In this document: positions 19,548 through 52,191 of the stretch, piece by piece
Position numbering within the stretch: position 1 is the stretch's first letter
Layout of the letters: the number at the start of each line of letters is the position of its first letter
From: a virus
Taxonomy: Duplodnaviria; Heunggongvirae; Uroviricota; Caudoviricetes
Virus record (IMG/VR): IMGVR_UViG_2627854282_000001
Location: 49,354-113,353 of that record
DNA: 64,000 nt
Reading direction: 5' to 3' (one strand)
Position numbers and translations under genes: made by a program
The notes under the pieces: generated by a model
Databases searched by the model: none
What the model was told of the DNA's origin: nothing
What the model saw: the letters and a program-made list of their open reading frames with translations, nothing else

Positions 19548-20072
19548 ATGGGTGACCGCTGCTATCTGGAACTGCGCCTGCGCGGGCGCATCGAAACCGT
19601 CGAGGCCTTCGAAAAGATCGTCGCGCTGTTCGAGGAAAACAACTGGCAGGTGGCCGAATACGACGCGGCCGGGCGCACGCTCGAAATGACGGAAAGCCTT
19701 GTCGTCGGCGACGCGAACGGCGAGGCGCCGACGTTCTACCTGAACGAATGCAACTATGCCGATATCGGCGAGGAAGAGGCGGAGCTGCAGGAGATCGGCA
19801 TCGCTTACGAAGTCTCGCACGAGGAAGGCGGCGATTACGGGGCCGGCGCGTGGTCATGGTCGTCGGCGCGCGGCAAGGTCGAAGCTGGCCGCATCAAAAA
19901 TCAAGGCGCATCGGTCTCGATAGCCGCACTGGAAGCCGCGCTCAAGCAGCCCGACCCGCTCGCCGCCGTCAAGGCCATTGTGGACGCCGGCAACGCGGCG
20001 GAGGGCACAGATTTGCCTGGCTATTCGCTGTCAGATGAGGTCAAGGCTTGGCTGGCCAAGGAGGGCAACTGA
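19548..20072 (+). CDS. hypothetical protein (174 aa)
   Basis: Leader motif plus GAAAGGA SD. Confidence 0.5.
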   Translation: MGDRCYLELRLRGRIETVEAFEKIVALFEENNWQVAEYDAAGRTLEMTESLVVGDANGEAPTFYLNECNYADIGEEEAELQEIGIAYEVSHEEGGDYGAGAWSWSSARGKVEAGRIKNQGASVSIAALEAALKQPDPLAAVKAIVDAGNAAEGTDLPGYSLSDEVKAWLAKEGN

Positions 20073-20872
20073 TGAGCAACCGCAAAGGGATTGGCGGGCA
20101 TCAGTCCGCGCGTGCCAACACCGAGGTCTGGCTGACCCCGCCCGATCTGCTGGAAGCGCTTGGCGGTGCCGAGGCGTTCGATCTGGACCCATGCGCGGCG
20201 CTGGGGCAACCATGGCCGACGGCGCGCCAGCATTTCACCATCGAGGATGACGGTCTCGCCCTGCCCTGGCATGGCCGCGTCTGGATGAATCCGCCCTACA
20301 CGTCGGGCATCATCGGGAAATGGCTTGGCAAGCTCGCCAAGCACGGCGACGGCATCGCCTTGACCTTTGCCCGGACCGAGACCGAGGCATTCCACCGTAC
20401 CGTCTGGGAGCAATGCGACGCGCTGCTCTTTCTGGAGGGTCGCCTCTTCTTCCATGTCGCCGAGGAGACGACTTTCAAGCTGAAGAACGGCGAGGTCGTC
20501 CGGGAAATCGTCGTTCCCAAGGGAGGGAAGGCGCCGGCCAATGGCGGCGCCCCGTCGGTCCTGTGCGCATATGGGATGGACAGCGCCGACATCCTGGCGG
20601 AGTCCGGTCTGCAAGGCAGCTTTGTGCCGCTTCGCTGGCGCGTTCTGACCTTCGGTTTCGAGACGGTCGGGACGTGGATCGAGGAGGTCATGGCACTGAT
20701 CGCCGGCCGCAACGAGCCGGTCACGCTCGATTGGCTGTACCGGAAGCTCGCCGGATCGCCGAAGGCGAAGCGCAATCCCAACTGGAAGGCGAAGATTCGC
20801 CAAACCCTCCAGCGCGGACCGTTCGAGGCCTTGGGCGGCGGCGTCTGGCAGCAAGCCAGCTTGGAGGTATGA
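20072..20872 (+). CDS. phage Dam-type N6-adenine DNA methyltransferase (266 aa)
   Basis: VWMNPPYT (NPPY motif IV) and overall resemblance to the phage N-6-adenine-methyltransferase family. The ATG at 20072 overlaps the upstream stop. Confidence 0.75.
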   Translation: MSNRKGIGGHQSARANTEVWLTPPDLLEALGGAEAFDLDPCAALGQPWPTARQHFTIEDDGLALPWHGRVWMNPPYTSGIIGKWLGKLAKHGDGIALTFARTETEAFHRTVWEQCDALLFLEGRLFFHVAEETTFKLKNGEVVREIVVPKGGKAPANGGAPSVLCAYGMDSADILAESGLQGSFVPLRWRVLTFGFETVGTWIEEVMALIAGRNEPVTLDWLYRKLAGSPKAKRNPNWKAKIRQTLQRGPFEALGGGVWQQASLEV

Positions 20873-22654: not shown

Positions 22655-23695
22655 ATGCCATCGAGCTTTGGCACAAATCACTTTGTAAACCTGGATGCCG
22701 CCTCTCGGTACTACGAGGCATATGGCGAAGGCGGACCAACGTCCATCAAGCAAATGATCGCGGAAGGCCGCATTGCCATCGGCCCACCTCCCTGCAAGCC
22801 AGATGAACGCGCCATCCTGAACCGTGAGGAGGGCCGATACTTTCGTGAGATCGTCGATGTCGCCCAACTGGCGCATCAGCCGGCCGCTGCCGCCGCCCCA
22901 AGCATGAAAAAGGAAGGAGCACGCATGAAGATTTCGAATGAGATCCTGGCCGTGCTGAGCACCGCCACCACGGACGGCCCGCGCCTGTTCCTGCATGGCG
23001 AACTCGATCGGAAGCTATATCAGGAGGTCAACAAAGTGCTGGAGGCCAACGGCGGCAAATGGAACCGCTCCGCTCGCGCCCATGTCTTCAGCGAACCGGC
23101 GGCCGAGGCGATCGAGCAGGTTCTGCTGACGGGCGAGTTTCAGAATATCAAGCAAGACCTTGGCCAGTTCGACACGCCCGATTTAGTCGCCGGTCGCGTG
23201 GCTGAACTTGCTGAGGTGCGCGAAAATATGACCGTCCTGGAGCCGAGCGCGGGGATTGGCAACCTCGTCGCCGCCATTCTCAAACGCCTGCCGGAGCCGG
23301 CGAGGATCATCATTCGCGCCAACGAGATCGATGAGAAACGCTGCCGCCAGCTTTCGGAACGCTTCGACATCGTGTCCGGCGTGCGCTGTGGCCGTGTCGA
23401 CTTCATGAAGGTCGACCCGGCTGCTGTCTCGCCCTACGATCGGGTGCTGATGAACCCGCCGTTCGCCAAACAGGCCGATATCGCCCACGTCATGCATGCC
23501 AGCCGCTTTGTGAAGCCGGGCGGCCGGCTTGTCTCGATCATGTCGGCGAGCGTCACCTTCCGCTCCGACGCCAGGACGAAGGCATTCCGCGAATTCGTTG
23601 ACGCCAACGAAGGCGTAATTGAGCGCCTGCCGGAAGGCGCCTTCAAGGAATCCGGCACCGCCGTGAACGCGGTGATCGTTTCGGTCAACCTCTGA
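22655..23695 (+). CDS. N6-adenine DNA methyltransferase (346 aa)
   Basis: FDTPDL...VLEPSAGIGNL (motif I) and LMNPPFAKQ (motif IV, NPPF). Leader motif plus GAAGGAG SD. Confidence 0.7.
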   Translation: MPSSFGTNHFVNLDAASRYYEAYGEGGPTSIKQMIAEGRIAIGPPPCKPDERAILNREEGRYFREIVDVAQLAHQPAAAAAPSMKKEGARMKISNEILAVLSTATTDGPRLFLHGELDRKLYQEVNKVLEANGGKWNRSARAHVFSEPAAEAIEQVLLTGEFQNIKQDLGQFDTPDLVAGRVAELAEVRENMTVLEPSAGIGNLVAAILKRLPEPARIIIRANEIDEKRCRQLSERFDIVSGVRCGRVDFMKVDPAAVSPYDRVLMNPPFAKQADIAHVMHASRFVKPGGRLVSIMSASVTFRSDARTKAFREFVDANEGVIERLPEGAFKESGTAVNAVIVSVNL

Positions 23696-26884: not shown

Positions 26885-28252
26885 TCACCGCTCAATTTCT
26901 TTCAGGATTCCGCGGCGTCCCTCGAACCAGAAATCCCGCATCTCGCCGTCATCGCCGCGCCGGCGTTTGCGGCAGTAGACCTCGATCCGACCCTTGTGCT
27001 TGGTCATCTCCTCGGCCCACTCCTTGCCCTCGCTGGTATCCATGTTCTGTGGCTTCTGGCTCTTCAGCCATCGGTCACGCCGAAACAGCGCCAGCGCCCA
27101 ATCGGCATCCTGTTCGATGCTGGAGCCGCCGTCGAAGTCGTTGAGCTGCGGCGGCGGATCATCCCGGCGTTGCGATGCCCTGGTGACCTGGCTCAGCGCG
27201 ATCACCGCGGCGTCCAATTCCTTTGCCAGCCACTTCATCCCACCGGTGACCACCTCCACGCGTTCGAACCGATCGCGCGTCTTCTGGAAGGTGCGGACCA
27301 GGCGGATGTGGTCGGCCACAATGCAGATAAGGCCCTTGGACCGCTTCATCTGGATGGCGCGATCCCGCATCTGCTCGACGGCGAGCTGCGGACGATCGTC
27401 GATGTAGACGCGGGACGTTTGCAAACGCTCCGTCGCGGCCCGGAGCTCCTCCATGGCATCAAAATCGTAGGCGCCGGCCTCGATGTCGGCGACGGAAACA
27501 TTGGTCTGCGCGGCGAGCGCGCGCCGCGCCATGTCCTCATCCTTCATCTCAAGCTGGAAATAGAGGACCGGCCCATATTGCGACGCGCGCTCGGCCAGCT
27601 GGGCACCGAGGACCGTCTTGCCGTCGCCCGGCCGGGCGCCGATGAAACCGAGATCGCCGCCATGGATGCGCCCCAGGATTTCGTCCAGCGACGGCAACCC
27701 GGTGTCGAAGCCAGGGATGATCCCGGAGGATTTCGCCTTGCTCGACATCGACATCGTCTTCTTGGCGATCTCGCCAAGCGACTTCAGCGGCTCCGACTGG
27801 CTGTTGACGCTGATATCCTTCATGCGGATTTCCATGTCGGCCAGCAGGTCGGTCGAGATCGTGCCAGGCTTCTTCGCCTCCTTCAGCCCGTGCTCGAGCG
27901 TGGCAATCAGTTTCCGGTGCCGCCACAGATCGACGACGACTTCGACCTGGTCGAGCGCGGATTCATTGTTTTCCGCGTCGCGCAGCAGCGCGGTCAGCAG
28001 CGACGATGTCGACTTGCCGTCGTCGTCATATTCCGGCCCGATGCGCGATTCGATCAGCGCCAGCGACATGCGCTTGCCTTCGGTGAAGATGTCGCGGATC
28101 GCCTGGTAGACCTTCTGGTGGATCGGCCGGACGAAATGCTGCGCCTGCAGGACATCAGCGACGCTCCAGAAGCTGCTTTCGCTTTGCAGCACCTTGCCGA
28201 GGATCATCTGCTCCGCCGCGATGTTTTCGAGCTGGTTATTGTTTCGCGACAT
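26885..28252 (-). CDS. dnaB: replicative DNA helicase DnaB (455 aa)
   Basis: GFDTGLPSLDEILGRIHGGDLGFIGARPGDGKT (Walker A), ICIVADHIRL, and N-terminal ILGKVLQSESSFWSV. Confidence 0.85.
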   Translation of the reverse strand: MSRNNNQLENIAAEQMILGKVLQSESSFWSVADVLQAQHFVRPIHQKVYQAIRDIFTEGKRMSLALIESRIGPEYDDDGKSTSSLLTALLRDAENNESALDQVEVVVDLWRHRKLIATLEHGLKEAKKPGTISTDLLADMEIRMKDISVNSQSEPLKSLGEIAKKTMSMSSKAKSSGIIPGFDTGLPSLDEILGRIHGGDLGFIGARPGDGKTVLGAQLAERASQYGPVLYFQLEMKDEDMARRALAAQTNVSVADIEAGAYDFDAMEELRAATERLQTSRVYIDDRPQLAVEQMRDRAIQMKRSKGLICIVADHIRLVRTFQKTRDRFERVEVVTGGMKWLAKELDAAVIALSQVTRASQRRDDPPPQLNDFDGGSSIEQDADWALALFRRDRWLKSQKPQNMDTSEGKEWAEEMTKHKGRIEVYCRKRRRGDDGEMRDFWFEGRRGILKEIER

Positions 28253-29426
28253 CGAATTCCTTTCCTGCCATGCGGGCTTCGAACCTCTTCTTGGTGATCA
28301 GCAGATCGAGCGAGTCGCCGTCACGGGTCATTTCGTTGATGGTCATTGCGATGCCGGCGCTCGCCATTCGCTCTTGAAGCGCACGCTGGTGCGAGATGCC
28401 CGGCGGCTCCATGATCTTGCCGGATGGGGTCAGGACAGCCTTGTCGCCGTCCGGCCAGCCGGTGATCCGCTCCACCTCCAGCGGCGGCTCGAAGGAAGAG
28501 ACCCCGCCGGTGGAGAGCATCGACCAAACCGGATAGCGGTAGGATTCGAGCTCCCAGGCGCCAAGGGCGCTCTCCAGGCCTTCGGCGGCACCGATATGCG
28601 CGTTGATGCCGCCGATGCGCACGGCGCCGCCGCCGGCCGGCCCGAGGCCCACTTTGGCCTCATCCACCAGGTCGTTTTTGCGCGGCTCCGTCGGATGGAG
28701 AAAAATTTGCCAGACCGCGATGGTCTCGCCAAAGGCGTCCTGGACCCGAGCGATCAGGCAGGGAAAGCGGCGGCCTTCCTTGATCTTGACCCCATTTTCC
28801 CATTCGGCTTCACGCTCGTATTCGTGATCCGGAATGAAACCGAGTATGCCGTCAGGATCCCACGGCCATTCCGAAACCGGCGCGATGCCGCGCCCCTCGA
28901 CGAGATAGCGCTCCGCCAGCGTTCCCTTGATGGACACCATCTGCTCGCAGATCGCCTTGGCGGTCTGTGCGCGGTATTGGCGCTTGCGCTCCTTCTTCTC
29001 TTCCTCCTTGCGCTGGCGCTCCTCGCGCTCGCGCCGTTCCTTCTCCTGGCGCTGCTCGCGCGCCGCCTTCTCAGCCGGCGTCTCTTGCCGTTGCTCCTGG
29101 ATGCCGAGATGCTCGCGGGCGTAGCGGAATGCTTCGCGATTGTCGTCCTTCCCGTTTGGGATGCGATCTTTCTCCCCGAAGTAAAGCAGCTGTAGCCCCC
29201 AACCACCTACATTCTGAGAATGTCGATACCATTGACCGCGATTGGGCCCTTCGAGTTGAACCTGGAAAGAACTGGTGACCCTCTTGTTTTTTCCCTTTAG
29301 GCGTGGGGTCAAAAGCGCCTTATCACCTTGCACGACATAGTTCGGCCAGAACCGCTTGATGATCGATTCGACGTCGGCGTTGAGCCGATCGCAGATTTCC
29401 TGGGTATCGTCGTGGTAGCGGGGCAT
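28236..29426 (-). CDS. Toprim-domain primase-like protein (396 aa)
   Basis: C-terminal GGAVRIGGINAHIGAAEGLESAL is Toprim-like, and it sits just upstream of dnaB as phage primases do. Only a weak N-terminal zinc-binding signature; the call is tentative. Confidence 0.5.
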   Translation of the reverse strand: MPRYHDDTQEICDRLNADVESIIKRFWPNYVVQGDKALLTPRLKGKNKRVTSSFQVQLEGPNRGQWYRHSQNVGGWGLQLLYFGEKDRIPNGKDDNREAFRYAREHLGIQEQRQETPAEKAAREQRQEKERREREERQRKEEEKKERKRQYRAQTAKAICEQMVSIKGTLAERYLVEGRGIAPVSEWPWDPDGILGFIPDHEYEREAEWENGVKIKEGRRFPCLIARVQDAFGETIAVWQIFLHPTEPRKNDLVDEAKVGLGPAGGGAVRIGGINAHIGAAEGLESALGAWELESYRYPVWSMLSTGGVSSFEPPLEVERITGWPDGDKAVLTPSGKIMEPPGISHQRALQERMASAGIAMTINEMTRDGDSLDLLITKKRFEARMAGKEFDVAKQ

Positions 29427-30263
29427 CTAAGCCGGCACGCCCAGCTGCTTGTCGAGGAAATCGAACAGAACGTTCCCGAGCACGGTATAGGTCTCGTTGC
29501 GCTGCTGTTTCGCCGTGATCGTGGCCTTCTCCAGCTGCTTGGCGAAGTCGAACTTTTTCATCGCCTTGTGTAGGTTCTCCTCCGACTCCTTCCAGGACGG
29601 CTCCACCTCGAGGACGTGGCAGAGAGCCTTGATGGTGGGCTCGCGCAAGTGGCCGACCTCGCCGCGGCGCGTCTGCGTGATGCACCGTAAGGCCGCTGTC
29701 AGGTGTTGGGCTCCATAGACCCTGAGGCACCGCTGCAGCGCGCCGATCGCCAGCGTTTCGTTCGGCTTCATGTTGATCGCGGCGACGGGGTATTTGCAGA
29801 TGGTCACTTCGGCCGCCGCGCACGCATCGCGCAGCGCAACCGCTTCCGGCGTGCCGGCGGCGACTTCCGCTGCGAAGATGGCGAGCCCATGGATCTTGGT
29901 GACGGCGCCGTTGATGGCGGCGAAGGCCTTGGCCTGTTTGCTGAGGTCGGCCTGGATGATGAGACATGGCACCGCCTCGATGCCGCGCAGCGCGGCGCCG
30001 AGCGTCCGATGCTGGCCGTCGACGATGGCGTAGAGATCGCCCTCAATCTCGGCGACAACGACGATGCCGAACAGCGACCAGTCGAATTCGCGGGCGATCT
30101 TGCCGATGTTCCTGGCACCGTTGCGCAGCACCTCACGCTGATAAGCGGGGTCGATGCGGAGCTTGCTGATGGGAATCCAGTCCAGACGTGGCGCGACCCC
30201 GAGATTTTCGCTGATCGGCGTTCCCATGAAGGCAAGGTATTCTGCGGGATCGATGTGCTTCAT
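29427..30263 (-). CDS. ParB/Srx-fold protein with DGQHR motif (DndB-like, 278 aa)
   Basis: ISKLRIDPAYQREV and IVDGQHRTLGA (DGQHR). ATG at 30261-30263 with AAGGAAG SD, one codon after the upstream stop. Confidence 0.7.
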   Translation of the reverse strand: MKHIDPAEYLAFMGTPISENLGVAPRLDWIPISKLRIDPAYQREVLRNGARNIGKIAREFDWSLFGIVVVAEIEGDLYAIVDGQHRTLGAALRGIEAVPCLIIQADLSKQAKAFAAINGAVTKIHGLAIFAAEVAAGTPEAVALRDACAAAEVTICKYPVAAINMKPNETLAIGALQRCLRVYGAQHLTAALRCITQTRRGEVGHLREPTIKALCHVLEVEPSWKESEENLHKAMKKFDFAKQLEKATITAKQQRNETYTVLGNVLFDFLDKQLGVPA

Positions 30264-30646
30264 CTGATCTTCCTTGGTTTGGGTCGTCTCTTGGGGTTGG
30301 CGCAACTGACAAGCGCGTAGCGGGTCAGCGACGGCCGGCCGGTGATCTCGGCGTGCCGGGCAAGAGCGAAGAAAACGCTGGTGTGGTCGCGGCCGAACCA
30401 TTCGCCGATCTTCTTCGCGCTGGCGCGGCGGCGGATGTGCTTGACGCGGTAGATCGCGGCATAGCGGGCGAGGCAGACCTCGGCGCGGCGACAGGCGCCG
30501 AGCACGCGGACCATGGGGACGCCGTACTCAATGCAGGTCTCCCGCACGATCTGGCGCACCCATTCCGGGATGCCGCGCTGCTTGATCATCGCGTGCAAGG
30601 TGGTGGCGACGCGCTTCGGCCTGCTCTTCTCGGCGACGCGCTTCAT
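30260..30646 (-). CDS. DnaA domain-IV-like HTH protein (128 aa)
   Basis: RYAAIYRVKHIRRRASAKKIGEWFGRDHTSVFFA matches the DnaA C-terminal DNA-binding signature (GRDHTTV). ATGA overlaps the SNF2 gene stop. Confidence 0.55.
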   Translation of the reverse strand: MKRVAEKSRPKRVATTLHAMIKQRGIPEWVRQIVRETCIEYGVPMVRVLGACRRAEVCLARYAAIYRVKHIRRRASAKKIGEWFGRDHTSVFFALARHAEITGRPSLTRYALVSCANPKRRPKPRKIR

Positions 30647-32295
30647 GGCACCTTCTCCAGGAACTGCATCGCCAGCTGCTTGATGCGGGATTCGTCGGTG
30701 TGGGCTTTGGCCGGAGCCGACCCGGGATCCTTGATGCCGCGCGCCTGGTCCTTCTTGATCGCGTTCACCGCCATGATCGTGGGATCGGACCCGTAGAGCA
30801 CATAGGGGATGTAGGCGGTGATTTCGGGCTGCGTCTGCCCCGGGCGATCGACGCGGCCGTAGAGCTGTTCGAGCACCTCGGGCGCCCAGTCGAGCTCGCC
30901 CGCGACGACCGTCCAGCAAACGTTTTGCAAACCGTCGAGCCCGGTGCCGGAACGCACCGAGATGATCAGCGGGTTGCAGTCGCCATCGACGAAGGCACGC
31001 TCGGCTTTCTCCTTCTGCTTGGCGTTCTCGCTGCCGGTGTACAGCATCGGCTTGTAGGCCTTGAACTCCTCGAGCCAGACGGAATAGACCTCGCGATGCC
31101 AGCCGCCGAGGATCACCTTCAGGCCAGAATCCATCAGCATCTTTACCAGCGCCGCAACGCCCTTGGCCTTGGCAAGACCGGTCTGGAGTCGGGCGAAAGC
31201 GTCGAGCTCGCGCGCCGCCTGGCCGGCCTCAACGAAGCTGCCGCTGACCACCTTCATCGCAAGCGCTCGGGCGAGCTGCTCGGCGTCCGCAGCGACCTCC
31301 TCATCGAAGTCGACCTCGATCGGGATGCGGTTGATCGGCCGGCCTTGGCGTAGGCGACGCAGGAAGACTCGAGCTTCCCGAAGGTAGGAGCCGAGAGCGT
31401 CCGGATCATTGACGACCCACTTCCCGCGCTGGATCGAGCACCACTCGCAGGTGAACTCTTCCCAGCTGCCCAGAACGTCGGGGTCGATGTACAGCATGAT
31501 GTTCCAGATTTCGGAGCCGTAGCCAAAGATCGGCGTCGCCGAAAGCCCGAGCCTCAGCTCGGCGTTGTCGGAAAAGACCTTCGCCGCGGCGCCCTTGCGC
31601 GTGTGAGCGCCGGTTCGAAGATCCTGGATTTCGTCGAAGACGACCGCCTTGAAAAGACCGGTCGCCGCGATATCCGTCCATCCGTGGATGTTGGTGTAGC
31701 GGAAGATGTAGAGGTTCGCCGGCGGCAGATCATAGGGTCTGGTGCCGTCGATGATGTGCGCGCCCATGAAGGTCAGCTTGGCGATGAACTTCTTCACCCA
31801 CTGGTCTGCCAGGTGCGCCGGCACGACGATGGCGGCTGGCAGGTACGGCGTGCCCATGAGCGAACCCAGCGCCGTGACCGTCTTGCCCAAGCCGACGTCA
31901 TCGCCCAGCAGCAGCCGCTTGACGGCGTGCAGAAGATCGCGGGCCTGCTTCTGCATGTCGTAGAGATCGTATCCTGACCGGAAACCGAACAGCTGCGTGG
32001 TCGACTTGAAGGTCGGCAGCATGATCTCCTCGGCGCGCGCCCGCGCTTGTTCGAAGAGGCTGCGCTTGCCTTCCAGGAGCGCGCGATCCTTCTCCTCCAT
32101 CGCGAGCGGATAGCGGTTCATGAACCAGGACAGGTCCGCGCTCATCTCGTCGGTGAACGGCAGATCGAACACCTTGGTCTGGTGCTTGGGGATCTTCCTG
32201 AAAACGTCTTTCAGGCGAATGGCGACATGCGGCGGCAGATCGCTGAGTATCCAACGATTGCCTTGCAGCTCGAGGCGCCCGTACGCAGCCGTCAT
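30643..32295 (-). CDS. SNF2-family DEAD/DEAH helicase (550 aa)
   Basis: LLLGDDVGLGKT (motif I), VVFDEIQDL (II), LSATP (III) and C-terminal helicase motifs. Confidence 0.8.
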   Translation of the reverse strand: MTAAYGRLELQGNRWILSDLPPHVAIRLKDVFRKIPKHQTKVFDLPFTDEMSADLSWFMNRYPLAMEEKDRALLEGKRSLFEQARARAEEIMLPTFKSTTQLFGFRSGYDLYDMQKQARDLLHAVKRLLLGDDVGLGKTVTALGSLMGTPYLPAAIVVPAHLADQWVKKFIAKLTFMGAHIIDGTRPYDLPPANLYIFRYTNIHGWTDIAATGLFKAVVFDEIQDLRTGAHTRKGAAAKVFSDNAELRLGLSATPIFGYGSEIWNIMLYIDPDVLGSWEEFTCEWCSIQRGKWVVNDPDALGSYLREARVFLRRLRQGRPINRIPIEVDFDEEVAADAEQLARALAMKVVSGSFVEAGQAARELDAFARLQTGLAKAKGVAALVKMLMDSGLKVILGGWHREVYSVWLEEFKAYKPMLYTGSENAKQKEKAERAFVDGDCNPLIISVRSGTGLDGLQNVCWTVVAGELDWAPEVLEQLYGRVDRPGQTQPEITAYIPYVLYGSDPTIMAVNAIKKDQARGIKDPGSAPAKAHTDESRIKQLAMQFLEKVP

Positions 32296-33513
32296 CTACA
32301 TCAACAACGGCTGGATAGAGCCGTCCCCGAAAATCTGATCCATCGGCGTATCGGCTGTTGGCTCGTCACCATCCCAGCCGTTGGGCCATGTCTTGAGCGC
32401 GATCAGTTCGCGGATGCGCGCTTCTTCCTCGGCGTTGAGGATGTCAATTTCCGGTCTGCCGAGTGTCCGCGCCGCCTCATTGACCTCCGCCTGGATCGAC
32501 AGCACGCGATCGAGAGCCATCAGGCGGGCGTCGAACGTCAATGGCCCCATCCGCTGCTTGTTCTTTGCGGTCGCAATGTCACCATTGCTGTCGAGACCTG
32601 TCTTCTTCAGGCGATGGCGCGGTTCCCGGAGTTCGCGATAGAGCGGTTTCAAGCCGAGCAGCGGCGAGATATAGGACCAGGAAGGGACACGGATGACGGT
32701 CGAGAGACCGAGATCTTTCGCTGCCAGCGGGCACCCGTTGCAGCCGGTGCGGGCGTTGATCTCCTGAGCCTCATCACCGCCATAGGCATCGACCACTGCC
32801 GAGGTTTCCCACGCACCGTATTCCTTCATGCGCGCATAGACCTTCAGCCAGTCGAAGACATTGCAGACGCGCCAGTGAAGGATCGGTGCAAGCGTGGCGA
32901 TCCGGCCGCGGATGCCCTTGGCCTCTGGGACGACTTGCTGATACCAACCCTGCCCGCATTCGGCTCCGTCCTTGCCGCATGACATGGCAATACGGCCGTC
33001 GCGGATGGCGCTCTCGCCTTGGCGGACTCCGGTGATCATCAGGACCGAGCCGTCGAGTTCGTCGATGCGACGCTGCAGCGCCGCGGTCATCGGATCGACC
33101 TTGATTTGCCGTGTGCACCAGCGGAACGTGTTGTTGTTCGGCGGCGGAACACCGCGTCCGATCATGTAGACCAAGAATCGCTGGTCCATCGGGGCGCAGA
33201 CGACTTCGCAGTAGATGCCGCGGGCCCGAAGCCGATCTAGAAGTCGCGCCGCGGCGATCGCCAACGGCGGCAACTCCATGCGCGTATCGGCATAGAGCAC
33301 GGTGATTGTCTTCGGCGCCTGAAGCCGGCCCGCATCGATCAAGTGGATGATCACGGTCAACGTGGCGGTGCTGTCTTTCCCGCCGGAGAAAGCGAAAACC
33401 CAATGATCGTGCTGCGACCCATAGGCTTGCATGGACTGTAGAGTCAGCTGGACCGCCTCGTCGTAGACGAGCCGCTTCGATCCATCGAACAGTGTCGGCT
33501 GCCTCATAGCCAA
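32296..33513 (-). CDS. PAPS-reductase-family (DndC-like) adenine-nucleotide alpha-hydrolase protein (405 aa)
   Basis: VFAFSGGKDST PP-loop, plus conserved Cys (CGKDGAECGQGW; CNGCP) as in DndC-like proteins. Confidence 0.75.
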   Translation of the reverse strand: MAMRQPTLFDGSKRLVYDEAVQLTLQSMQAYGSQHDHWVFAFSGGKDSTATLTVIIHLIDAGRLQAPKTITVLYADTRMELPPLAIAAARLLDRLRARGIYCEVVCAPMDQRFLVYMIGRGVPPPNNNTFRWCTRQIKVDPMTAALQRRIDELDGSVLMITGVRQGESAIRDGRIAMSCGKDGAECGQGWYQQVVPEAKGIRGRIATLAPILHWRVCNVFDWLKVYARMKEYGAWETSAVVDAYGGDEAQEINARTGCNGCPLAAKDLGLSTVIRVPSWSYISPLLGLKPLYRELREPRHRLKKTGLDSNGDIATAKNKQRMGPLTFDARLMALDRVLSIQAEVNEAARTLGRPEIDILNAEEEARIRELIALKTWPNGWDGDEPTADTPMDQIFGDGSIQPLLM

Positions 33514-33851
33514 GCCTTCGCCAGATTGAGGAAATAGACCGGCTTCCCATTGAGCGCCGGCGGGAAGCCCATGGGCACATTGCTGATCAGCACAAGCTCT
33601 TTCAGAACCTCATGTTCGGCGTAGCGCTCCATCTGGTGATAGATCGACCTCTTGCTTCCCTTTATCTTCACTTCGACGCCGACGTCGCCGAGCCTAAAGT
33701 CAATGACGTCCCGTTCACTCAGCCGATGCTCTCGGCCATAGTCCATGCCGGCATCGTTGAACTCCCGGGCGATCGCCGCCTGCAGTTCCTTCTCATCTGT
33801 CAGTGGAAACCGACAGCGGCAAAGCACAGTCATGATGTCGAGAGCGCTCAA
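33504..33851 (-). CDS. VRR-NUC-like nuclease (115 aa), tentative
   Basis: DVIDFRLGDVGVEVKIKGSKRSIYHQ resembles the VRR-NUC PD-(D/E)xK core (D...E-V-K...Q). Confidence 0.45.
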   Translation of the reverse strand: MSALDIMTVLCRCRFPLTDEKELQAAIAREFNDAGMDYGREHRLSERDVIDFRLGDVGVEVKIKGSKRSIYHQMERYAEHEVLKELVLISNVPMGFPPALNGKPVYFLNLAKAWL

Positions 33852-33867: not shown

Positions 33868-34611
33868 TCAGTGCCTGAGAAACGCGATGGACTTGTTCGA
33901 ACTCCAGCACAAGCCGCACGTCGCGCAAGCCAGTGTGCGCCCGGTCTGCTGTGGACAAACTATGAACCCTGGCGTCGCCTGCTCCGGCAGTTCGACGACT
34001 TCAGAAGCCATCTTCTCCATGAGCGCGCCGGAAAATCTCATCCACCACCTGGTGGGAAAGTCGCGGCGGAGCTTGGCCACCGCCCGCGTGATCGGCTCCT
34101 CCGGGTCGATGCGCGCGGTGAAGCCGAAGACGTGCAGCGCGGGGCAAGTCTCCATCAGCGCGCGCCAGGTCAGCACGTAATCGACGCTGTAGAAATCGCC
34201 GAGGATATGCAGGCGGACCGCGAATCCTGATGGATAGCGGTTTTGCAAGGCAACGACTTCGTGAACGAGGAAGTGCTCGAGCTCGGGGCCATGCTGCCAG
34301 CGCTCGCCCAAGTGGACGTTGTTCCCATAGCAGGAGCGCCAGGAGCCACAGGAGCGCGGGCATGTCTTCCTCTCCTCCAGGGTCAGCATGAAGATCGGGA
34401 AACCCTTCCACCGTCCCTTCGTCACCACCTTGCCGATCTTCGGGTTGTGGTGGCCCGATTTCAGAATCCCGCCGGCCGCCGCTGGATCCTTCACGGTCGA
34501 CGTGTATACGGTCCGTCCCTCGATGATCGCGGGATGGTCGACCGCCGGCAGATAGCCGCGGCCGCCCTTCCCTCCCCGATGCGGATGGCGAACGATCGTG
34601 CCGTCAGTCAT
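33868..34611 (-). CDS. Cys-rich conserved hypothetical protein (247 aa)
   Basis: Protein-like with CPRSCGSWRSCYG, CPALH and CATCGLC clusters; function not recognised. Confidence 0.5.
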   Translation of the reverse strand: MTDGTIVRHPHRGGKGGRGYLPAVDHPAIIEGRTVYTSTVKDPAAAGGILKSGHHNPKIGKVVTKGRWKGFPIFMLTLEERKTCPRSCGSWRSCYGNNVHLGERWQHGPELEHFLVHEVVALQNRYPSGFAVRLHILGDFYSVDYVLTWRALMETCPALHVFGFTARIDPEEPITRAVAKLRRDFPTRWWMRFSGALMEKMASEVVELPEQATPGFIVCPQQTGRTLACATCGLCWSSNKSIAFLRH

Positions 34612-34936
34612 CGTAACCGCCGATCAGCTTGAGGTGCGGCGCGCTCTTCGGATGGTGGACATCAGGGACGCGCTCGGTGGCGCCTGGATGCATGTCGACG
34701 AGGAAGTCGGCGGCGCGCCAATCACCCAGGGCGAGATGATAGGCGTGCAGGTTCCGGAATTCGTCGGAGAGCATCCGGCGGAGCGCCGACCATGCCCCAG
34801 TCTCTTTCAGCTTGCGGACGCGCTTGTCCGCGGCGCCTTCCGGACGTTTGAGATCGAAGACGCCGACGTGATCGCCGACGCCGGGATAGTATTTGGCGAG
34901 GATGATATCCTCATCGAGCGTCCAGCGCTTACTCAT
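34604..34936 (-). CDS. hypothetical protein (110 aa)
   Basis: ORF between the methyltransferase and Cys-rich genes with overlapping ends. Confidence 0.45.
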   Translation of the reverse strand: MSKRWTLDEDIILAKYYPGVGDHVGVFDLKRPEGAADKRVRKLKETGAWSALRRMLSDEFRNLHAYHLALGDWRAADFLVDMHPGATERVPDVHHPKSAPHLKLIGGYDD

Positions 34937-37675: not shown

Positions 37676-38212
37676 TCATCGCCTGCGCCGCGGCAGCCCT
37701 AGATGCGCCTTGCGCGCGTGGTACTTGCAATATGGCGGAATCCCGCCCGTGGCGGCGCCGCAGAAATAGAAATCGCTGTGCTGCGGATCGCCGATCGGCC
37801 AGCGGCATGTCTTATCCGTCAACTCTGGCATCGAAAGCTTCAGTGGCTCCGGCTCAGGCAGATCGACCACCGTTTCGGGTCGATCATCCTTCTCGAAGAG
37901 CGGGTCGTCATCATCCTCGATGACGGCCTTCCTTCTTGCCTTTGGCGGTTCCGGCTGTTTCGCCGGCAGCCGCGGATTGATCGGCTTCTCCTTTGCCTTC
38001 TTGGCGGGCCGCGGTGCGGGCTCGGCGTTGCCGATGAGGCGAGGCAACGTGATCTTGCTCCGCAGCGGCACCTTTGCGCGCTCGGCGAGCCCGATGATGG
38101 CATTCCTGGTGCAGCCGCCAATCTCGGCGGCGATCTGGCTGGCGCTGAGCCCATCCTTGACCCCTTGCTGGATGCGCTTGATCCGCTCCTCTCGCGAAAT
38201 CTTATCCCACAT
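37676..38212 (-). CDS. gcrA: GcrA cell-cycle regulator homolog (178 aa)
   Basis: N-terminal GLSASQIAAEIGGCTRNAIIGLAERAKV, a Pro/Lys-rich linker and C-terminal CRWPIGDP...FCG...YCKYH match GcrA family architecture. Confidence 0.75.
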   Translation of the reverse strand: MWDKISREERIKRIQQGVKDGLSASQIAAEIGGCTRNAIIGLAERAKVPLRSKITLPRLIGNAEPAPRPAKKAKEKPINPRLPAKQPEPPKARRKAVIEDDDDPLFEKDDRPETVVDLPEPEPLKLSMPELTDKTCRWPIGDPQHSDFYFCGAATGGIPPYCKYHARKAHLGLPRRRR

Positions 38213-39867: not shown

Positions 39868-40140
39868 TCAGATCCTCCCCTTGAGCTCGGCGGCCGGCTT
39901 GAACTTCAGCGCGCGGCCGGCGGGGATGTCGACCGGCGCGCCCGTCGCGGGATTGCGGCCCTTGCGCGCCGCCGTCGCCTTGACGCTGAAGATGCCGAAG
40001 CCGCCGAGGTGGACGCGATCGCCGCCGGCAAGCTTCTCGCCGATGATGTCGAGGGCTGCGTCCACCGCGCGCAATGCGTCGGACTTGGGCATCTGGATCT
40101 TCTCGGCGACGGCCGCCGCGATATCCGATTTCGTTGTCAT
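39868..40140 (-). CDS. HU/IHF-family DNA-binding protein (90 aa)
   Basis: GGFGIFSVKATAARKGRNPATGAPVDIPAGRALKFKPAAELK is the HU beta-arm signature. Confidence 0.8.
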   Translation of the reverse strand: MTTKSDIAAAVAEKIQMPKSDALRAVDAALDIIGEKLAGGDRVHLGGFGIFSVKATAARKGRNPATGAPVDIPAGRALKFKPAAELKGRI

Positions 40141-40165: not shown

Positions 40166-40846
40166 TCATGCGGCGGTTGACGCCGGTTTGGCGTTCAGGA
40201 GTCCCGTCTGGTTTCCCCATGAAACCCAGCCGGGCCGATCCGCTCTCGAGAAAAGCTCGACATAAGGACCGTCAAAGAGTGTCTCGATGCGCTCGTATTG
40301 TTCATCCGGTTTCTGGCTGTGGACGCGCCGCGGCTGCCGGATCGCGTCGAGAGGCATTGCCTCGATAAAATCTCGGACGCTGCGCACGCCGACGGGAACA
40401 ACGGCCGGCCCGAGCATGTCGCTCTCGATGGGCTGACGCAGCTGCGGATCGCCCTTCATGCAAAGGACGCAGGGTTCCAGATTCTTGCGAGTGCCGTACC
40501 CGCCTCCGAAGGCGTACTTGCCGGTCTTGGGATTGTATTTCAGCCACTCCCAGCCGAGCCCGCCATAATCCAGGCCAAGAGCTCTGATCACCCGGGCCCA
40601 TTCCATCATCAGCGGCCATGTGAACCAGATGAACACTGCACAGTCGTCTGCCATCAGTGCATCGATCGGGACCGAGCAAATCTCCTCGATCGAGAGACAG
40701 TCGTAATGCCGCTGCGGAGCCTTTCCCTGCCCTTTGTCGGACCAGTGCTCGAACTCCCACGGGAAGTCGATCAGCATGGTCTTGAAGCCGCCGGTGGGAC
40801 GAATTTCGGCGAACTGCTTGGTAACGAGGGCGACGTCCAGGCTCAT
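40166..40846 (-). CDS. MT-A70-family N6-adenine DNA methyltransferase (226 aa)
   Basis: LIDFPWEF (DPPW-type motif) and C-terminal HSQKPDEQYERIETLFDGPYVELFSRADRPGWVSWGNQ. Confidence 0.8.
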   Translation of the reverse strand: MSLDVALVTKQFAEIRPTGGFKTMLIDFPWEFEHWSDKGQGKAPQRHYDCLSIEEICSVPIDALMADDCAVFIWFTWPLMMEWARVIRALGLDYGGLGWEWLKYNPKTGKYAFGGGYGTRKNLEPCVLCMKGDPQLRQPIESDMLGPAVVPVGVRSVRDFIEAMPLDAIRQPRRVHSQKPDEQYERIETLFDGPYVELFSRADRPGWVSWGNQTGLLNAKPASTAA

Positions 40847-42497: not shown

Positions 42498-43103
42498 CTA
42501 CTGAACGGAGAGGAACGGCACCGAGGAACCGGGAATCATGCTGGTCGGCAGTGTGCCGTTCCACTTCTCCGCCTTGGTGAGTTCTACGAGCAAAGGATTG
42601 TTGGATAGCGCGGCGGCGCGCGCCTTGATGGCGTCGGCTTCGGCGGTGCCCTGCACCTGCGTCGCATAGGCTTTTGCGTCGGCCTCGGCCTTGACGGATT
42701 TCGCGCGGCCTTCCGCCTGAGTGACGGCGATGTCGGCCTTGATCTTCTCCTGCTGGAGCGTCTGCTCCTGCTTCTGGACCTCGACCTGGGCCGTCATCCG
42801 CGCCTCCACGGCCAGCATCTCGCCTCTTTCGTCGGACCGGCAGGTTCGCTTGGCAGAGCCGTCGGGGTTGGTCTCGCAGGTCCAGTAGACCACCTGCTGC
42901 TGGGTGCTTATTTTGACCACTGACTGGAACCACGGCGCTTTGAAATGGAGCCCCGGCCCCACCGTCTCGGTATAGGCGCCATTGGTGAGGAGGACGCCGC
43001 GCTGACCCTGGTCGATCGTAAACCACGATCCGAATGCGATGATGACGGCCACGAGGACGAGCAGCGCGGCGAATGCAACGGAAATGATCTGTCGGGAGCC
43101 CAT
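42498..43103 (-). CDS. SPFH/band-7 (stomatin/prohibitin-like) membrane protein (201 aa)
   Basis: N-terminal transmembrane segment, then QRGVLLTNGAYTETVGPGLHFKAPWFQSVVKISTQ (SPFH core). Confidence 0.75.
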   Translation of the reverse strand: MGSRQIISVAFAALLVLVAVIIAFGSWFTIDQGQRGVLLTNGAYTETVGPGLHFKAPWFQSVVKISTQQQVVYWTCETNPDGSAKRTCRSDERGEMLAVEARMTAQVEVQKQEQTLQQEKIKADIAVTQAEGRAKSVKAEADAKAYATQVQGTAEADAIKARAAALSNNPLLVELTKAEKWNGTLPTSMIPGSSVPFLSVQ

Positions 43104-43113
43104 GGGATGCCTT

Positions 43114-43377
43114 TCAGCTGGAGGGATAGCTTGAGTTTTCCGCGGTCAGTTTGCTGATAAGCTGCGCGACGTCGCCGACCGTGACGAGCTGGAACATCTG
43201 ATCGTCGTTGATCTCGATAGAGAACTCTTCCTCGATCGCCATCACCACCCGGACGATATCGAGGCTGTCGGCGAGGAGGTCGTCTTCGAGTTTGGTCTCA
43301 CCCGTGATCGTCACTTCCTGGTCGCCGAGCGTGTCGACCAGGATGCTTTTCAGCCTGGGATCGACTTCAGTTGCCAT
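43114..43377 (-). CDS. acyl-carrier-protein-like protein (87 aa)
   Basis: LEDDLLADSLDIVRVVMAIEEEFSIEI contains the ACP phosphopantetheine-attachment motif (D-S-L). ATG at 43375-43377 with AAGGA SD. Confidence 0.6.
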   Translation of the reverse strand: MATEVDPRLKSILVDTLGDQEVTITGETKLEDDLLADSLDIVRVVMAIEEEFSIEINDDQMFQLVTVGDVAQLISKLTAENSSYPSS

Positions 43378-43822
43378 GGATTCCTTGAACCTTCGACGAT
43401 CGATCGCGAGCATGACGCGCTCGTAGACCATTGACGCTACGCCCTTCATGAGCCGCCGCATGTTTCCCCCTAAGCCGAAGCCTTTCGGCGCGATATTTCG
43501 CGGCCGCGGCTTCCGGTTTTTCGCAAAACTCTTCGTATTTCATCATCAAGTTTACGAGGGTTTCCCCATCCACAAACTTCATGTCCTTCGACCGGTGCCA
43601 GATCCTCGCAGCCATTGACGGACGGATTCCGGCGCAATCGGCAGCATCATCTCTCGCCGACGCCCACGTATCGACACGCGGGCCCCGATGGAGCCACTTC
43701 GCCAATGATTCCAGCCAGAAGGATGCCTTCTCGGGGTAGGACATCCCTTCGGTGTCAGCCATGGCCCTCAATTTTGGCCCAGCAGAAACTGTGTCGGATT
43801 CGACAAAACTCGTGTCGGACAT
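43367..43822 (-). CDS. hypothetical protein (151 aa)
   Basis: ATG at 43820-43822 with GAAGGAG SD (MSDTSFVESDTVSAGPK...). Confidence 0.45.
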   Translation of the reverse strand: MSDTSFVESDTVSAGPKLRAMADTEGMSYPEKASFWLESLAKWLHRGPRVDTWASARDDAADCAGIRPSMAARIWHRSKDMKFVDGETLVNLMMKYEEFCEKPEAAAAKYRAERLRLRGKHAAAHEGRSVNGLRARHARDRSSKVQGIHGN

Positions 43823-47850: not shown

Positions 47851-49173
47851 ATGTCCGACAAGGTCTACCGCATCGTCCGAATGGAATCGGAGAACATCAA
47901 GAAACTGAAGGCGGTTGCGATCGAGCCGGAAGGCAATGTGATTGAGATCACTGGCGACAACGACCAGGGCAAGACCAGCTTGCTCGATTCCATCTACTGG
48001 GCGCTTGGCGGCGTCGGTGCCATCCAGGATGACCCCATACGGGAAGGTGCCGACAAGGCGCGCATTTATCTCGACATCGGTCCGTACAAGATCACGCGCC
48101 GTATGACGCGGACTGAGGATGGCTTCAACCCGACCCTGATTGTCGAGAATGAGGAGGGCGCAAAATACTCATCGCCGCAAAAGATGCTCGACGCCATCCT
48201 CGGCGAGCTCACTTTTGACCCGCTGGAGTTCGTCCGCAAGAAGCCGAAGGAGCAGTTCGACACGCTGAAGGCGTTTGTCACCGGCTTCGACTTCGAGGAA
48301 TCCGCGGCGCAGCGCAAGAAGATCTTCGAAGAGCGCACCGTCGTCGGCCGCCGCGCCGCCGAGCTCGAGGCCCAGGCGAAGGGGATCGAGGTTCCGGCCG
48401 ACACTCCGGACGAACTCGTCGACGAGAAAGCACTTGTGGCTGAAATGCAGGCCGCCGCCGAGCACAATTCCACAGTCGAGCGGCACAAAGCAGCTCGCGA
48501 GGCGGTCCGGCAGAACATCGCCGCGATGGAGCAGGCGAACAGGGACCGCGAGAGCCAGAAGATCGAATTGCTGAGGCAGATCGATTTTCTGGAGGAACGA
48601 AGCAAGGAGACCTTCAGGAACATCCAAGCCGAGCAGGTCAAACTCATCAACGCTGAGCCCCTCCCCGAACCGATCGATCCGTCGACCATCAGTGCGAAGA
48701 TCGATGCCGCGCGCCAGACCAACGCGTTCGTCGCCAGGAAGCATCAGCGCGCCGAGCTCGATCGTCTGGCAAAGGAGCGCCAAGCCGAGGTGAAGAAACT
48801 CACTGACGCCATTGAAGTGATCGACAAGGCGAAAGCCGATGCCATCGCAGCGGCGAAGATGCCGGTTGAAGGCATCGGCTTTGGCGATGACGTCGTGTTG
48901 CTCAACGGTCATCCGCTCGAACAAGCCAGCGGCGCTCAGCAGCTGCGCGCATCGATCGCGCTGACCATGGCGGCAAATCCGAAGCTTCGCATCATGCTGG
49001 TGCGCGACGGCGCCCTGCTCGGGACCGCCGCGATGAAGATGATTGCCGAAATGGCCGACGAACACGATTTCCAGGTCTGGATCGAGACTGTCGAGTCGTC
49101 GCGGCCCGGTGCCATCGTTATCGAAGACGGGCGCATCCGCGGCGCGCAGCCGGCGGCGGAGGCCGCGGAATGA
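47851..49173 (+). CDS. SMC/SbcC/RecN-like recombination ATPase (440 aa)
   Basis: N-terminal Walker A ITGDNDQGKTSLLDSI, a long coiled coil, and C-terminal signature/D-loop LRASIALTMA...IMLVRDG. Confidence 0.7.
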   Translation: MSDKVYRIVRMESENIKKLKAVAIEPEGNVIEITGDNDQGKTSLLDSIYWALGGVGAIQDDPIREGADKARIYLDIGPYKITRRMTRTEDGFNPTLIVENEEGAKYSSPQKMLDAILGELTFDPLEFVRKKPKEQFDTLKAFVTGFDFEESAAQRKKIFEERTVVGRRAAELEAQAKGIEVPADTPDELVDEKALVAEMQAAAEHNSTVERHKAAREAVRQNIAAMEQANRDRESQKIELLRQIDFLEERSKETFRNIQAEQVKLINAEPLPEPIDPSTISAKIDAARQTNAFVARKHQRAELDRLAKERQAEVKKLTDAIEVIDKAKADAIAAAKMPVEGIGFGDDVVLLNGHPLEQASGAQQLRASIALTMAANPKLRIMLVRDGALLGTAAMKMIAEMADEHDFQVWIETVESSRPGAIVIEDGRIRGAQPAAEAAE

Positions 49174-51337: not shown

Positions 51338-52191
51338 TGCCAAGAATCCGCGTCATCGACCTGGAGACCGACGACGATGCCATCGTCGAGATCGGATACA
51401 CCGACCTCGTCGCCACTGGCACCGATCTGCTCGGCGATCCCACGCTTTGGGAAGTCGAGGAAGGTCTCAGCTTCCTGGTCAATCCAGGCCGGCCGATTTC
51501 GCCGGACAGCTCCGGCGTCCACAACATCACCGATGACGACGTCGCCGGCGCCGGCTCCTGGACGGAGGCCGCCGAGCTCGTCTTCCACGACAACCTTGCG
51601 CCGGACATCGTCGCCTTCGCCGCACACTCCGTCGAGCACGAGCAGAATATGATCGACCCGGTATGGACCGAGGGGAAGCCGTGGGTCTGCACGTTCAAGG
51701 GCGCCGTCAGGCTCTGGCCCGAGGCACCATCGCACAGCAACAACGCGCTGCGCTACTTCCGGCGGCCGGCCGGGCTCGACCGGCGGCTCGCCCAGCCGAT
51801 CCACCGCGCGAAGCCGGACTCCTACATCACCGCGTTCACGCTTCGCGATCTCCTCGATGAGGCATCGCTGGCCGACCTCGTCAAATGGACCGGCGAACCA
51901 GCGCTGCTGCCGCGCTGCAAGATCGGCGACTACCGCAATGGCGGCAAGGGCACGCCCTGGGCGGACGTCGAAACCAGCATGCTGGAATGGATCATCCGCA
52001 AGATGTCGGGCGATCCGTCGCGCGAGAACGACGTCCACACCGCCCGCCATCACCTCGAGCAGCGCGAGATCGACCAGCGGCTCGAATACGAGCGGATCGA
52101 ACACGAGCGGCAGCTCAGGGAAAACGGCATGGCCGAACCCGCCGGCAATCCCCTCGTCGACCACGCCAACCAGGAGTCGCTTTCTCTATGA
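51337..52191 (+). CDS. DnaQ-like DEDDh 3-prime-5-prime exonuclease (284 aa)
   Basis: Exo I IRVIDLETDD, Exo II AHSVEHEQNMI, Exo III HRAKPDSYITA. Confidence 0.75.
   Translation: MPRIRVIDLETDDDAIVEIGYTDLVATGTDLLGDPTLWEVEEGLSFLVNPGRPISPDSSGVHNITDDDVAGAGSWTEAAELVFHDNLAPDIVAFAAHSVEHEQNMIDPVWTEGKPWVCTFKGAVRLWPEAPSHSNNALRYFRRPAGLDRRLAQPIHRAKPDSYITAFTLRDLLDEASLADLVKWTGEPALLPRCKIGDYRNGGKGTPWADVETSMLEWIIRKMSGDPSRENDVHTARHHLEQREIDQRLEYERIEHERQLRENGMAEPAGNPLVDHANQESLSL

Follow-up and report, generated by a model that had tools for sequence, protein, structure and literature searches.

Does a phage region that brings together a ParB-like protein and a relative of DndC encode a dedicated DNA-modification system, or has a solitary enzyme settled among replication genes? 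The question is raised by a 64,000-nucleotide stretch of a caudoviricete genome (positions 49,354 to 113,353 of the IMG/VR record IMGVR_UViG_2627854282_000001), which we call the window. Four neighbouring genes on its minus strand encode a ParB-like protein, a helix-turn-helix (HTH) protein of the DnaA domain-IV type, a SNF2-family helicase, and a PP-loop protein related to DndC and to phosphoadenosine phosphosulfate (PAPS) reductases. A first-pass annotation, made from the sequence, read them as a module for DNA modification or anti-restriction in which the ParB-like and PAPS-reductase proteins would be a functional pair. Our results speak against such a module. The DndC-like gene probably encodes an orphan anti-restriction or DNA-modification enzyme inside a replication operon. 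The SNF2, HTH, and ParB-like genes serve replication or regulation in this phage lineage and are not a dedicated system.

The domain calls for the four proteins were all correct, as judged by matches to Pfam, PHROG, NCBIfam, and PADLOC models, and all four genes lie where they had been placed. The open reading frame (ORF) of the DndC-like protein starts at TTG 33513 and encodes 405 amino acids (aa), but the likelier start is ATG 33507, which gives 403 aa, as in the Mesorhizobium plurifarium protein P0121. The two proteins are 100% identical, and P0121 is annotated as 'phosphoadenosine phosphosulfate reductase'. The DndC-like protein matches phrog_12882 over its full length (2e-221) and PF01507 (PAPS_reduct) with 31.3 bits (cut-off 22.5). 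Its best specific family is DndC in both NCBIfam and PADLOC (8.5e-33 for the latter), with matches that span around 340 residues. The alignment with the Salmonella DndC covers residues 38–369 (24% identity, E = 4e-21) and includes the catalytic residues.

The PP-loop motif SGGKDS lies at residues 43–48, C133 of the RWCT motif corresponds to C146 of the Salmonella DndC, and C258/C261 of a CxxC motif correspond to C280/C283. In alignments of 27–41 relatives (28–87% identical), SGGKDS, RWCT, GxRxxES, C258/C261, and C179/C186/C217 are invariant or nearly so. The last three cysteines are specific to the clade and sit in a loop that is absent from DndC. The conserved cysteines could bind an iron–sulphur cluster; DndC itself has been described as an iron–sulphur protein that acts as an ATP pyrophosphatase and has a cysteine dyad specific to it. 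Given the intact PP-loop, RWCT, and GxRxxES motifs, the dyad, and the three clade-specific cysteines, the DndC-like protein is, to judge from its residues, almost certainly a catalytically active enzyme. Its AlphaFold2 model (predicted local distance difference test score of 87) shows a PP-loop fold. The closest solved folds, those of adenosine phosphosulfate (APS)/PAPS reductases, TtuA, and NcsA, extend over no more than about 220 N-terminal residues. Sequence searches of the PDB gave no match for this protein or for the ParB-like protein, and the PDB holds no DndC structure; a profile search with the DndC-like protein reached only FAD synthase and CysD.

The name PAPS reductase does not make the protein a plain CysH, and this assignment was ruled out. 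None of the NCBIfam models for CysH or APS reductase matched at E ≤ 0.01, and the sequence has no cysteine after residue 261, whereas CysH has a catalytic cysteine at its C-terminal end. The view of the first-pass annotation that the protein is DndC-like and not an enzyme of the CysH type was thus borne out. The DUF3440 domain of Pfam, typical of IbrA, was not matched either.

Homologues at 60–88% identity are found in Rhizobium phages (RHph_N28_2 and RR1-A), Pseudomonas phages (Dobby, D14A, and phiC725A), and the Microcystis phage Mae-JY29. The homologue of phiC725A (gp09) is annotated as DndC, that of Dobby is gp46, and public records name homologues 'PAPS reductase'. In IMG/VR, 325 loci encode relatives. 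A large protein collection contains more than 5000 homologues, mostly in genomes of Rhizobiales, and an exhaustive search among representatives clustered at 50% identity returned 142 at E ≤ 1e-30. The family is very large, highly conserved, and already annotated in phages, and lone phage copies are common. The phage 'PAPS reductases' of phrog_12882 belong to this same full-length family and share its early, methylase-rich context; in the window, the gene differs by lying three genes from a C5 methylase, between a nuclease gene and the SNF2 gene. Among the top representatives of the clade, the only fusions are a DUF6884::PAPS protein and a probable SNF2/DndC chimera, and none involves a methylase. 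The former is P0289 (L184, 7001–8743), a DUF6884::PAPS_reduct fusion. The latter is P0308, in which an N-terminal part of SNF2 is joined to a DndC-like C-terminal part, and which may be a chimera of recombination or of assembly. Locus L183 (915–5245) encodes a relative that is more DndC-like (PADLOC DndC 6e-56) and has 29% identity with the window protein. Next come a 671-aa protein, which weakly matches HerA-type ATPases (PADLOC mad8 6.9e-07, HerA 1e-04), and then a 434-aa protein. The arrangement recalls the published links of HerA/FtsK to Dnd systems.

We used the window's proteins to search the neighbourhoods of DndC-like genes in 86 loci (80 viral loci and 6 loci of known phages). We also analysed 80 viral loci, at ±10 kb, that encode DUF6551 relatives of the ParB-like protein. 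Relatives of the ParB-like, SNF2, and HTH proteins are present in 2, 3, and 1 of the 86 DndC-like loci, respectively. The 115-aa ORF upstream of the DndC-like gene has relatives in 3 and the 780-aa C5 methylase in 20. In the reverse direction, the DndC-like family is found in 1/80 ParB loci and any PAPS-type PP-loop protein in 4–6/80. Six ParB contigs have Pfam annotations, and PAPS_reduct occurs in one, the 84%-identical sister phage L092, which has the same gene order as the window; the annotated neighbourhoods of ParB relatives at 44–60% identity lack it. Locus L018 has both a ParB-like and a DndC-like gene, but in a different order. The counts in these three sets rule out the four-gene module. 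The ParB and PAPS-reductase pairing is most simply read as synteny inside a single phage lineage.

The gene order points to how the DndC-like gene came to its place. The 115-aa ORF lies directly upstream of the SNF2 gene in Ruegeria phage 45A6 and Paracoccus phage Pyei1, and the pair is contiguous in L018, L059, and L060. The DndC-like gene separates the two both in the window and in L092 but lies elsewhere in L018. Since the nuclease–SNF2 pair is contiguous elsewhere and split here, the DndC-like gene looks inserted. These sequence comparisons are most simply explained by a mobile DndC-like gene having inserted into a replication/recombination operon.

The translational coupling noted in the first pass is real. 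The nuclease and DndC-like genes overlap by ATGA, as do SNF2 and HTH, and HTH and ParB. Between the DndC-like and SNF2 genes, and again between the ParB and primase genes, a TAG stop is directly followed by ATG. Stop and start codons overlap or abut wherever two genes meet between the 115-aa ORF and the primase gene. The coupling thus spans the whole operon, nuclease, primase, and DnaB genes included, and does not set the four genes apart. We found no promoter-like or terminator-like signals inside the operon above the expectation from shuffled sequences.

We also searched for the partners of DndC in phosphorothioate systems. DndD and DndE had no match among the window ORFs tested, in line with the initial remark that this is not a canonical Dnd system, and dndD, dndE, and dndB never adjoin the DndC-like gene in the 86 loci. 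Across 82 neighbourhoods, we found neither a conserved ATPase nor a conserved small partner that binds DNA. A universal small partner such as DndE was rejected: the ORFs at position −1 fall into many unrelated clusters. An AAA_23 ATPase encoded elsewhere in the window was considered as a hidden DndD and discarded, as it matches LmuB and PbeC only weakly, through the P-loop; a gene for recombination is more likely than a DndD equivalent. This ATPase is of the SMC/ABC type, and a DEDDh exonuclease is encoded approximately 2 kb downstream of it, on the strand opposite to the operon. An SbcC-like ATPase near the DndC-like gene of Pseudomonas phages was likewise rejected as a DndD: it belongs to a RecT recombination module, has a CxxC hook-like motif, and is restricted to one lineage. 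The restriction partners DndFGH, SspE, and PglZ were not found near the DndC-like gene.

DNA methyltransferases are the genes with which the DndC-like gene does associate. We detected them in crude gene calls with hidden Markov models (HMMs) built from four neighbour clusters, complemented by motifs, a procedure that missed at least one annotated methylase (in the Mae-JY29 locus). A methylase is immediately adjacent to the DndC-like gene in 31/79 loci, compared with 121/1423 for the other genes of the same loci (odds ratio 6.9), and lies within two genes in 39/79 compared with 243/1423 (odds ratio 4.7). The adjacent methylases belong to four families and are found on either side of the gene, which argues for repeated juxtaposition. 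In every annotated phage that we examined, a DNA methyltransferase is encoded near the DndC-like gene. The neighbour is a large C5 methylase in RR1-A, Dobby, phiC725A, and OQ658365 (in the last, it is annotated as hypothetical and was assigned by clustering) and a 'DNA-methylase' in Mae-JY29, whereas RHph_N28_2 has two methylases one small gene downstream. Homologues of the C5 methylase (cluster c2) are at +1 or −1 in Dobby and in many IMG/VR loci. According to Pfam labels, a prophage of Agrobacterium vitis has an N6_N4 methylase three small genes upstream of the DndC-like gene, and one of Sinorhizobium meliloti has C5 and N6_N4 methylases upstream. In the metagenomic prophage L180 (6229–9141), an SspD-like protein of 244 aa (PADLOC SspD 1.9e-47) and a DndC-like protein of 410 aa are encoded in tandem, followed by a SAM (S-adenosylmethionine)-dependent methyltransferase and, two small genes further, by an integrase. 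The pair, assigned to the SspD-like and DndC-like families by PADLOC, resembles an orphan toolkit made up of two enzymes of the phosphorothioate type. Finally, the PADLOC MTase_II model PDLC03333 matches the PAPS domain, so fusions of PAPS domains and methylases appear common enough to define a model.

The window itself encodes the four methyltransferases that had been noted for this element, and its DndC-like gene lies in a methylase-rich early region. The 780-aa C5 methylase has nine repeats around 40 aa apart (aa 329–655), each ending in (A/S)DP(R/N/S), in the variable region, which follows the catalytic N-terminal half and precedes the C-terminal motifs. From this sequence, it looks like a phage methylase with multiple target-recognition domains, i.e. 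multispecific. Pseudomonas phages encode relatives at 50–60% identity that often adjoin the DndC-like gene.

The ParB-like protein has a different set of associations. Its start is the ATG at 30263, which gives 278 aa instead of the 324 aa of the full ORF and agrees with homologues of 276–278 aa. It matches PF20188 (DUF6551) marginally (27.0 bits for a cut-off of 26.8) and the 'ParB-like' family phrog_1033 at 8.6e-20. Its AlphaFold2 model (score of 86) has Noc, ParB, and KorB as top Foldseek matches (probability 1.0, E = 2e-5 to 1e-3, approximately 230 columns), covering the nucleoside triphosphate (NTP)-binding N-terminal domain and the helical DNA-binding domain. It thus shares with the cytidine triphosphate-binding clamps ParB, Noc, and KorB both the ParB/Srx N-terminal fold and a helical DNA-binding domain. 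The DGQHR motif reported in the first pass as the signature of DndB is present, as IVDGQHRTLG: among 22 homologues, G81, Q82, H83, and R84 are invariant, D80 is nearly so, and a YQR motif is invariant. The link to DndB did not hold. The protein shares the DGQHR and QR motifs with DndB/DGQHR proteins but fails the DGQHR model (TIGR03187, 20.2 bits for a cut-off of 58.85, over only 47 residues) and belongs to DUF6551. In a BLASTP comparison, the Salmonella DndB matches at E = 0.03 and only in the motif region. We therefore ruled out that it is a DndB.

The neighbours of ParB-like genes are MT-A70 methylases, sigma factors, and primases, and not dndCDE or parA. A Pfam-confirmed MT-A70 methylase follows directly (position +1) in 18/71 viral loci; at ±1, such methylases flank 19/71 ParB-like genes compared with 53/1930 other genes (odds ratio 12.9). 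Several of these neighbours (L100–L179) have variant DPxW motifs. In L135, the gene downstream of the ParB-like gene reads as a ParB_N segment plus MT-A70, of which Pfam matched only MT-A70, and in L096, the second gene downstream encodes a protein that Pfam annotates as ParB_N+MT-A70. A sigma-70 gene of the extracytoplasmic function (ECF) type comes directly after the ParB-like gene in the closest non-identical relatives, with overlapping stop and start codons, whereas the sigma-70 gene of the window encodes 425 aa and lies at a distance. A sigma factor was rejected as a general partner of the ParB-like protein: the arrangement occurs in only 5/80 loci, all of them nearest relatives. The ParB-like protein is probably a DNA-bound NTP-switch protein. 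It may serve in the regulation or targeting of phage methylation or in the organisation of the replication region, separately from the DndC-like gene.

The other genes of the block also have their relatives among ordinary phage functions. The SNF2 protein matches PF00176 (40.9 bits, cut-off 24.9) and phrog_62 (2.6e-71), and its helicase C-terminal domain, PF00271, falls slightly under the cut-off (20.2 bits for 23.5). Its full-length relatives, at 38–46% identity, are in Ruegeria, Paracoccus, Arthrobacter, and other phages that lack a DndC-like match. The HTH protein (128 aa) matches PF08299 (Bac_DnaA_C) with 41.1 bits (cut-off 31.5) but is not a full DnaA (TIGR00362, 34.6 for 343.9), and it has a homologue at the same position in L092. 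The 115-aa protein is 39–40% identical to its counterparts in 45A6 and Pyei1. It matched no Pfam family; the 'endonuclease' annotation in Pyei1 and a D...EVK motif suggest that it is likely a nuclease of the PD-(D/E)xK type. SNF2 belongs to a phage replication/recombination module, in which its usual upstream partner is the small nuclease gene.

The coordinates of these genes and of their surroundings are given in Table 1. Six-frame ORFs and gene calls based on GC content at third codon positions show minus-strand genes running unbroken from approximately 43.4 kb to 25.8 kb. The surrounding genes include those for a GcrA-like regulator, HU, an MT-A70 methylase, a sigma factor, a CI-like repressor, and HNH proteins, which together indicate a prophage of an alphaproteobacterium. 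The stretch is a prophage of Mesorhizobium plurifarium, and the four genes are part of one long, translationally coupled early operon. The primase and DnaB genes follow the ParB-like gene in the same order as in L092, L093, and L095. The operon also encodes an SPFH/Band-7 protein and an acyl carrier protein (ACP)-like PP-binding protein, the latter unusual in a prophage early operon. The 247-aa DUF7227/GP88-like protein has two cysteine-rich motifs (CPRSCGSWRSC and CATCGLC), and its counterpart in L092 has 509 aa. The DnaB of L092 (10039–12465) has 808 aa with a LAGLIDADG match, and thus probably an intein, whereas that of the window has 455 aa and no such match.

Table 1. Features of the window and, in the last rows, sigma factor genes next to ParB-like genes in related loci.
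Feature	Location	Strand	Matches and remarks
Dam-like methyltransferase	20048-20872		
N6_Mtase methyltransferase	22655-23695		
DnaB helicase	26885-28252	-	PF03796, PF00772
Primase (DUF7146 + Toprim)	28236-29426	-	PF23639, PF13362
ParB-like DUF6551 protein, 278 aa	29427-30263	-	PF20188, phrog_1033
DnaA domain-IV-type HTH protein, 128 aa	30260-30646	-	PF08299
SNF2-family helicase, 550 aa	30643-32295	-	PF00176, phrog_62
DndC-like PP-loop protein (PAPS-reductase-like)	32296-33513	-	phrog_12882, PF01507, DndC models
115-aa protein, candidate PD-(D/E)xK-type nuclease	33504-33851	-	phrog_5928 4e-31
247-aa DUF7227/GP88-like ORF	33868-34611	-	between C5 methylase and nuclease genes
110-aa ORF	34604-34936	-	
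C5 cytosine methyltransferase, 780 aa	34929-37271	-	PF00145 51 bits
GcrA-like cell-cycle regulator	37676-38212	-	early operon
HU	39868-40140	-	early operon
MT-A70 methyltransferase	40166-40846	-	
Sigma-70 factor, 425 aa	41097-42374	-	early operon
SPFH/Band-7 protein	42498-43103	-	early operon
ACP-like PP-binding protein	43114-43461	-	early operon
AAA_23 ATPase	47851-49173	+	
DEDDh exonuclease	51337-52191	+	
ECF-type sigma-70 after ParB-like gene, L093	8828-9502		
ECF-type sigma-70 after ParB-like gene, L094	8873-9550		
ECF-type sigma-70 after ParB-like gene, L095	8843-9499		
ECF-type sigma-70 after ParB-like gene, L100-L102			

We propose the following scenario for the orphan enzyme. A solitary, horizontally mobile DndC-like gene would have landed between the nuclease and SNF2 genes and become part of the anti-restriction toolkit of the phage, alongside the methylases. 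Its product would adenylate DNA, or a substrate that is an intermediate of Dnd, and transfer sulphur supplied by the host IscS. For this, it would either dock onto a DndD/E scaffold of the Dnd type provided by the host or rely on a phage methyltransferase as DNA-targeting partner. Replicating phage DNA might thereby evade phosphorothioate-dependent restriction of the DndFGH or Ssp type. The ParB-like protein would act apart from this, as an NTP-binding DNA clamp or regulator. That phage PAPS reductases are candidates for anti-defence, as suggested in the first-pass annotation, is a view at which the literature has arrived independently: a 2026 study lists phage PAPS reductases regulated by Aca, homologues of DndC and SspD, as candidate anti-defence genes. 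For the PAPS reductases of Thermus phages, the literature calls for investigation. One fusion protein has been implicated in anti-Dnd activity: in Vibrio, a phage PAPS::Dam fusion together with a neighbouring gene let the phage infect a host carrying Dnd (Piel et al. 2022; 10.1101/2021.05.05.442762). The similarities with our case are a phage-borne domain of the PAPS superfamily tied to a DNA methyltransferase, the lack of DndD/E, and a proposed role against phosphorothioate restriction. In the Vibrio protein, however, a PAPS domain of around 175 aa is fused to Dam, whereas the DndC-like gene of the window is separate and has no fused methylase.

Several observations weigh against this scenario. 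The match to the TIGR03183 model of DndC (108.2 bits, E = 4.6e-31) does not reach the cut-off of 290.4. The protein shares with DndC the PP-loop core (SGGKDS, FRWCT, and GxRxxES) and three aligned cysteines over approximately 330 residues but differs by its three clade-specific cysteines, by the absence of dndD and dndE, and by missing around 150 C-terminal residues. Known phosphorothioate synthesis requires a partner ATPase (DndD, SspC, or BrxC), and none travels with the DndC-like gene. The BrxP of BREX type 4, for instance, makes phosphorothioate only with BrxC. SspD and BrxP share the PAPS-type PP-loop with our protein in weak and partial matches (PADLOC SspD 1e-9, BrxP 2.3e-13), but they need SspBC or BrxC partners, which are lacking at the window locus. 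The methylase nearest to the DndC-like gene is three genes away in the window, and crude detection finds none within four genes in 28/82 DndC-like loci. The loci are not phylogenetically independent, so Fisher p-values overstate the significance of methylase adjacency. A tblastn search with the DndC-like protein found no detectable similarity to Vibrio phage proteins, including the anti-Dnd PAPS::Dam; the analogy thus holds only at the level of the superfamily, and the Vibrio activity was obtained with two genes transferred together. Finally, we found no biochemical or genetic study of the DndC-like clade in the literature.

The alternatives differ in whether the protein acts with the ParB-like one, without catalysis, on another substrate, or for the lysogen. 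Were the ParB-like and PAPS-reductase proteins a functional pair like IbrA/IbrB or DndB/DndC, with HTH and SNF2 as accessories to a new modification, one would point to the DGQHR and YQR motifs, the coupling of both genes in one operon, and their joint presence in L092 and, reordered, in L018. ParB-family proteins, namely DndB and DpdB, do act in DNA-modification systems. We consider the pair unlikely: co-occurrence is confined to one lineage (2/86 and 1/80 loci), five of the six annotated ParB neighbourhoods lack PAPS_reduct, the resemblance to DndB stops at the motif (20.2 bits for 58.85; E = 0.03), and the coupling extends to nuclease, primase, and DnaB genes. IbrAB is a pair of a ParB-family protein and a PAPS reductase, IbrA, with a DUF3440 domain. 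The window resembles it in having genes of the two families in one mobile element, but no DUF3440 was found, the genes are not adjacent, and their pairing is not conserved. Alternatively, a truncated DndC homologue devoid of partners may be a non-catalytic decoy or inhibitor that titrates the host DndD, DndE, IscS, or DndFGH. DndC has been reported in subcomplexes with DndA and DndD, and known anti-Dnd phage proteins such as JSS1_004 reportedly act by binding. The near invariance of SGGKDS, RWCT, GxRxxES, and five cysteines at 28–60% identity is expected of an enzyme and needless for a decoy, which makes this reading improbable.

An active enzyme could also work on RNA or nucleotides, either as a tRNA thiolase (similar to TtuA, NcsA, or TtcA) or as a CysH-like protein boosting cysteine, methionine, and SAM for the methylases. 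The nearest solved folds, the PAPS reductase label of public records, and the consumption of SAM by neighbouring methylases would fit, yet the solved folds account for only the N-terminal 220 or so residues, the best family matches over around 340 residues are to DndC models with none to CysH or APS reductase, cysteines are lacking past residue 261, and the gene lies in an operon for DNA replication and modification. There is little probability in this reading. We deem it very unlikely that the gene benefits the lysogen as a defence gene, being expressed from the prophage, modifying host and prophage DNA with the methylases, and excluding superinfecting phages. The PADLOC defence models DndC, BrxP, and SspD do match the protein, prophages often bear defence genes, and orphan DndC and SspD hits in prophages of S. 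meliloti have been reported, without interpretation, as defence elements. However, the gene sits in the replication operon, on the strand opposite to the CI-like repressor region, and is thus probably expressed after induction and not in the lysogen. DndFGH, SspE, and PglZ are lacking nearby, and isolated phages whose genomes were sequenced have the gene as well. An extension of the orphan-enzyme scenario is that solitary phage DndC-like enzymes are minimal, DndD/E-independent modification systems. A methyltransferase encoded next to them or fused to them, in many cases a multispecific C5 methylase, would guide them, and the mark laid down on phage DNA would be a phosphorothioate or some other (thio or amino) product of PP-loop chemistry. 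We regard this as speculative and rather doubtful.

Phosphorothioate-based defences (Dnd, Ssp, and BREX type 4) are widespread, and the ways in which phages evade them are poorly understood. Our analysis shows that the orphan DndC-like family keeps its catalytic core, has no ParB, DndD, or DndE partner, and prefers positions beside DNA methyltransferases. These findings on the core and the partners narrow the hypotheses on orphan DndC homologues of phages and correct the idea of a four-gene module. If true, a methylase-guided modification independent of DndD/E would be a portable phage counter to phosphorothioate-sensing restriction.

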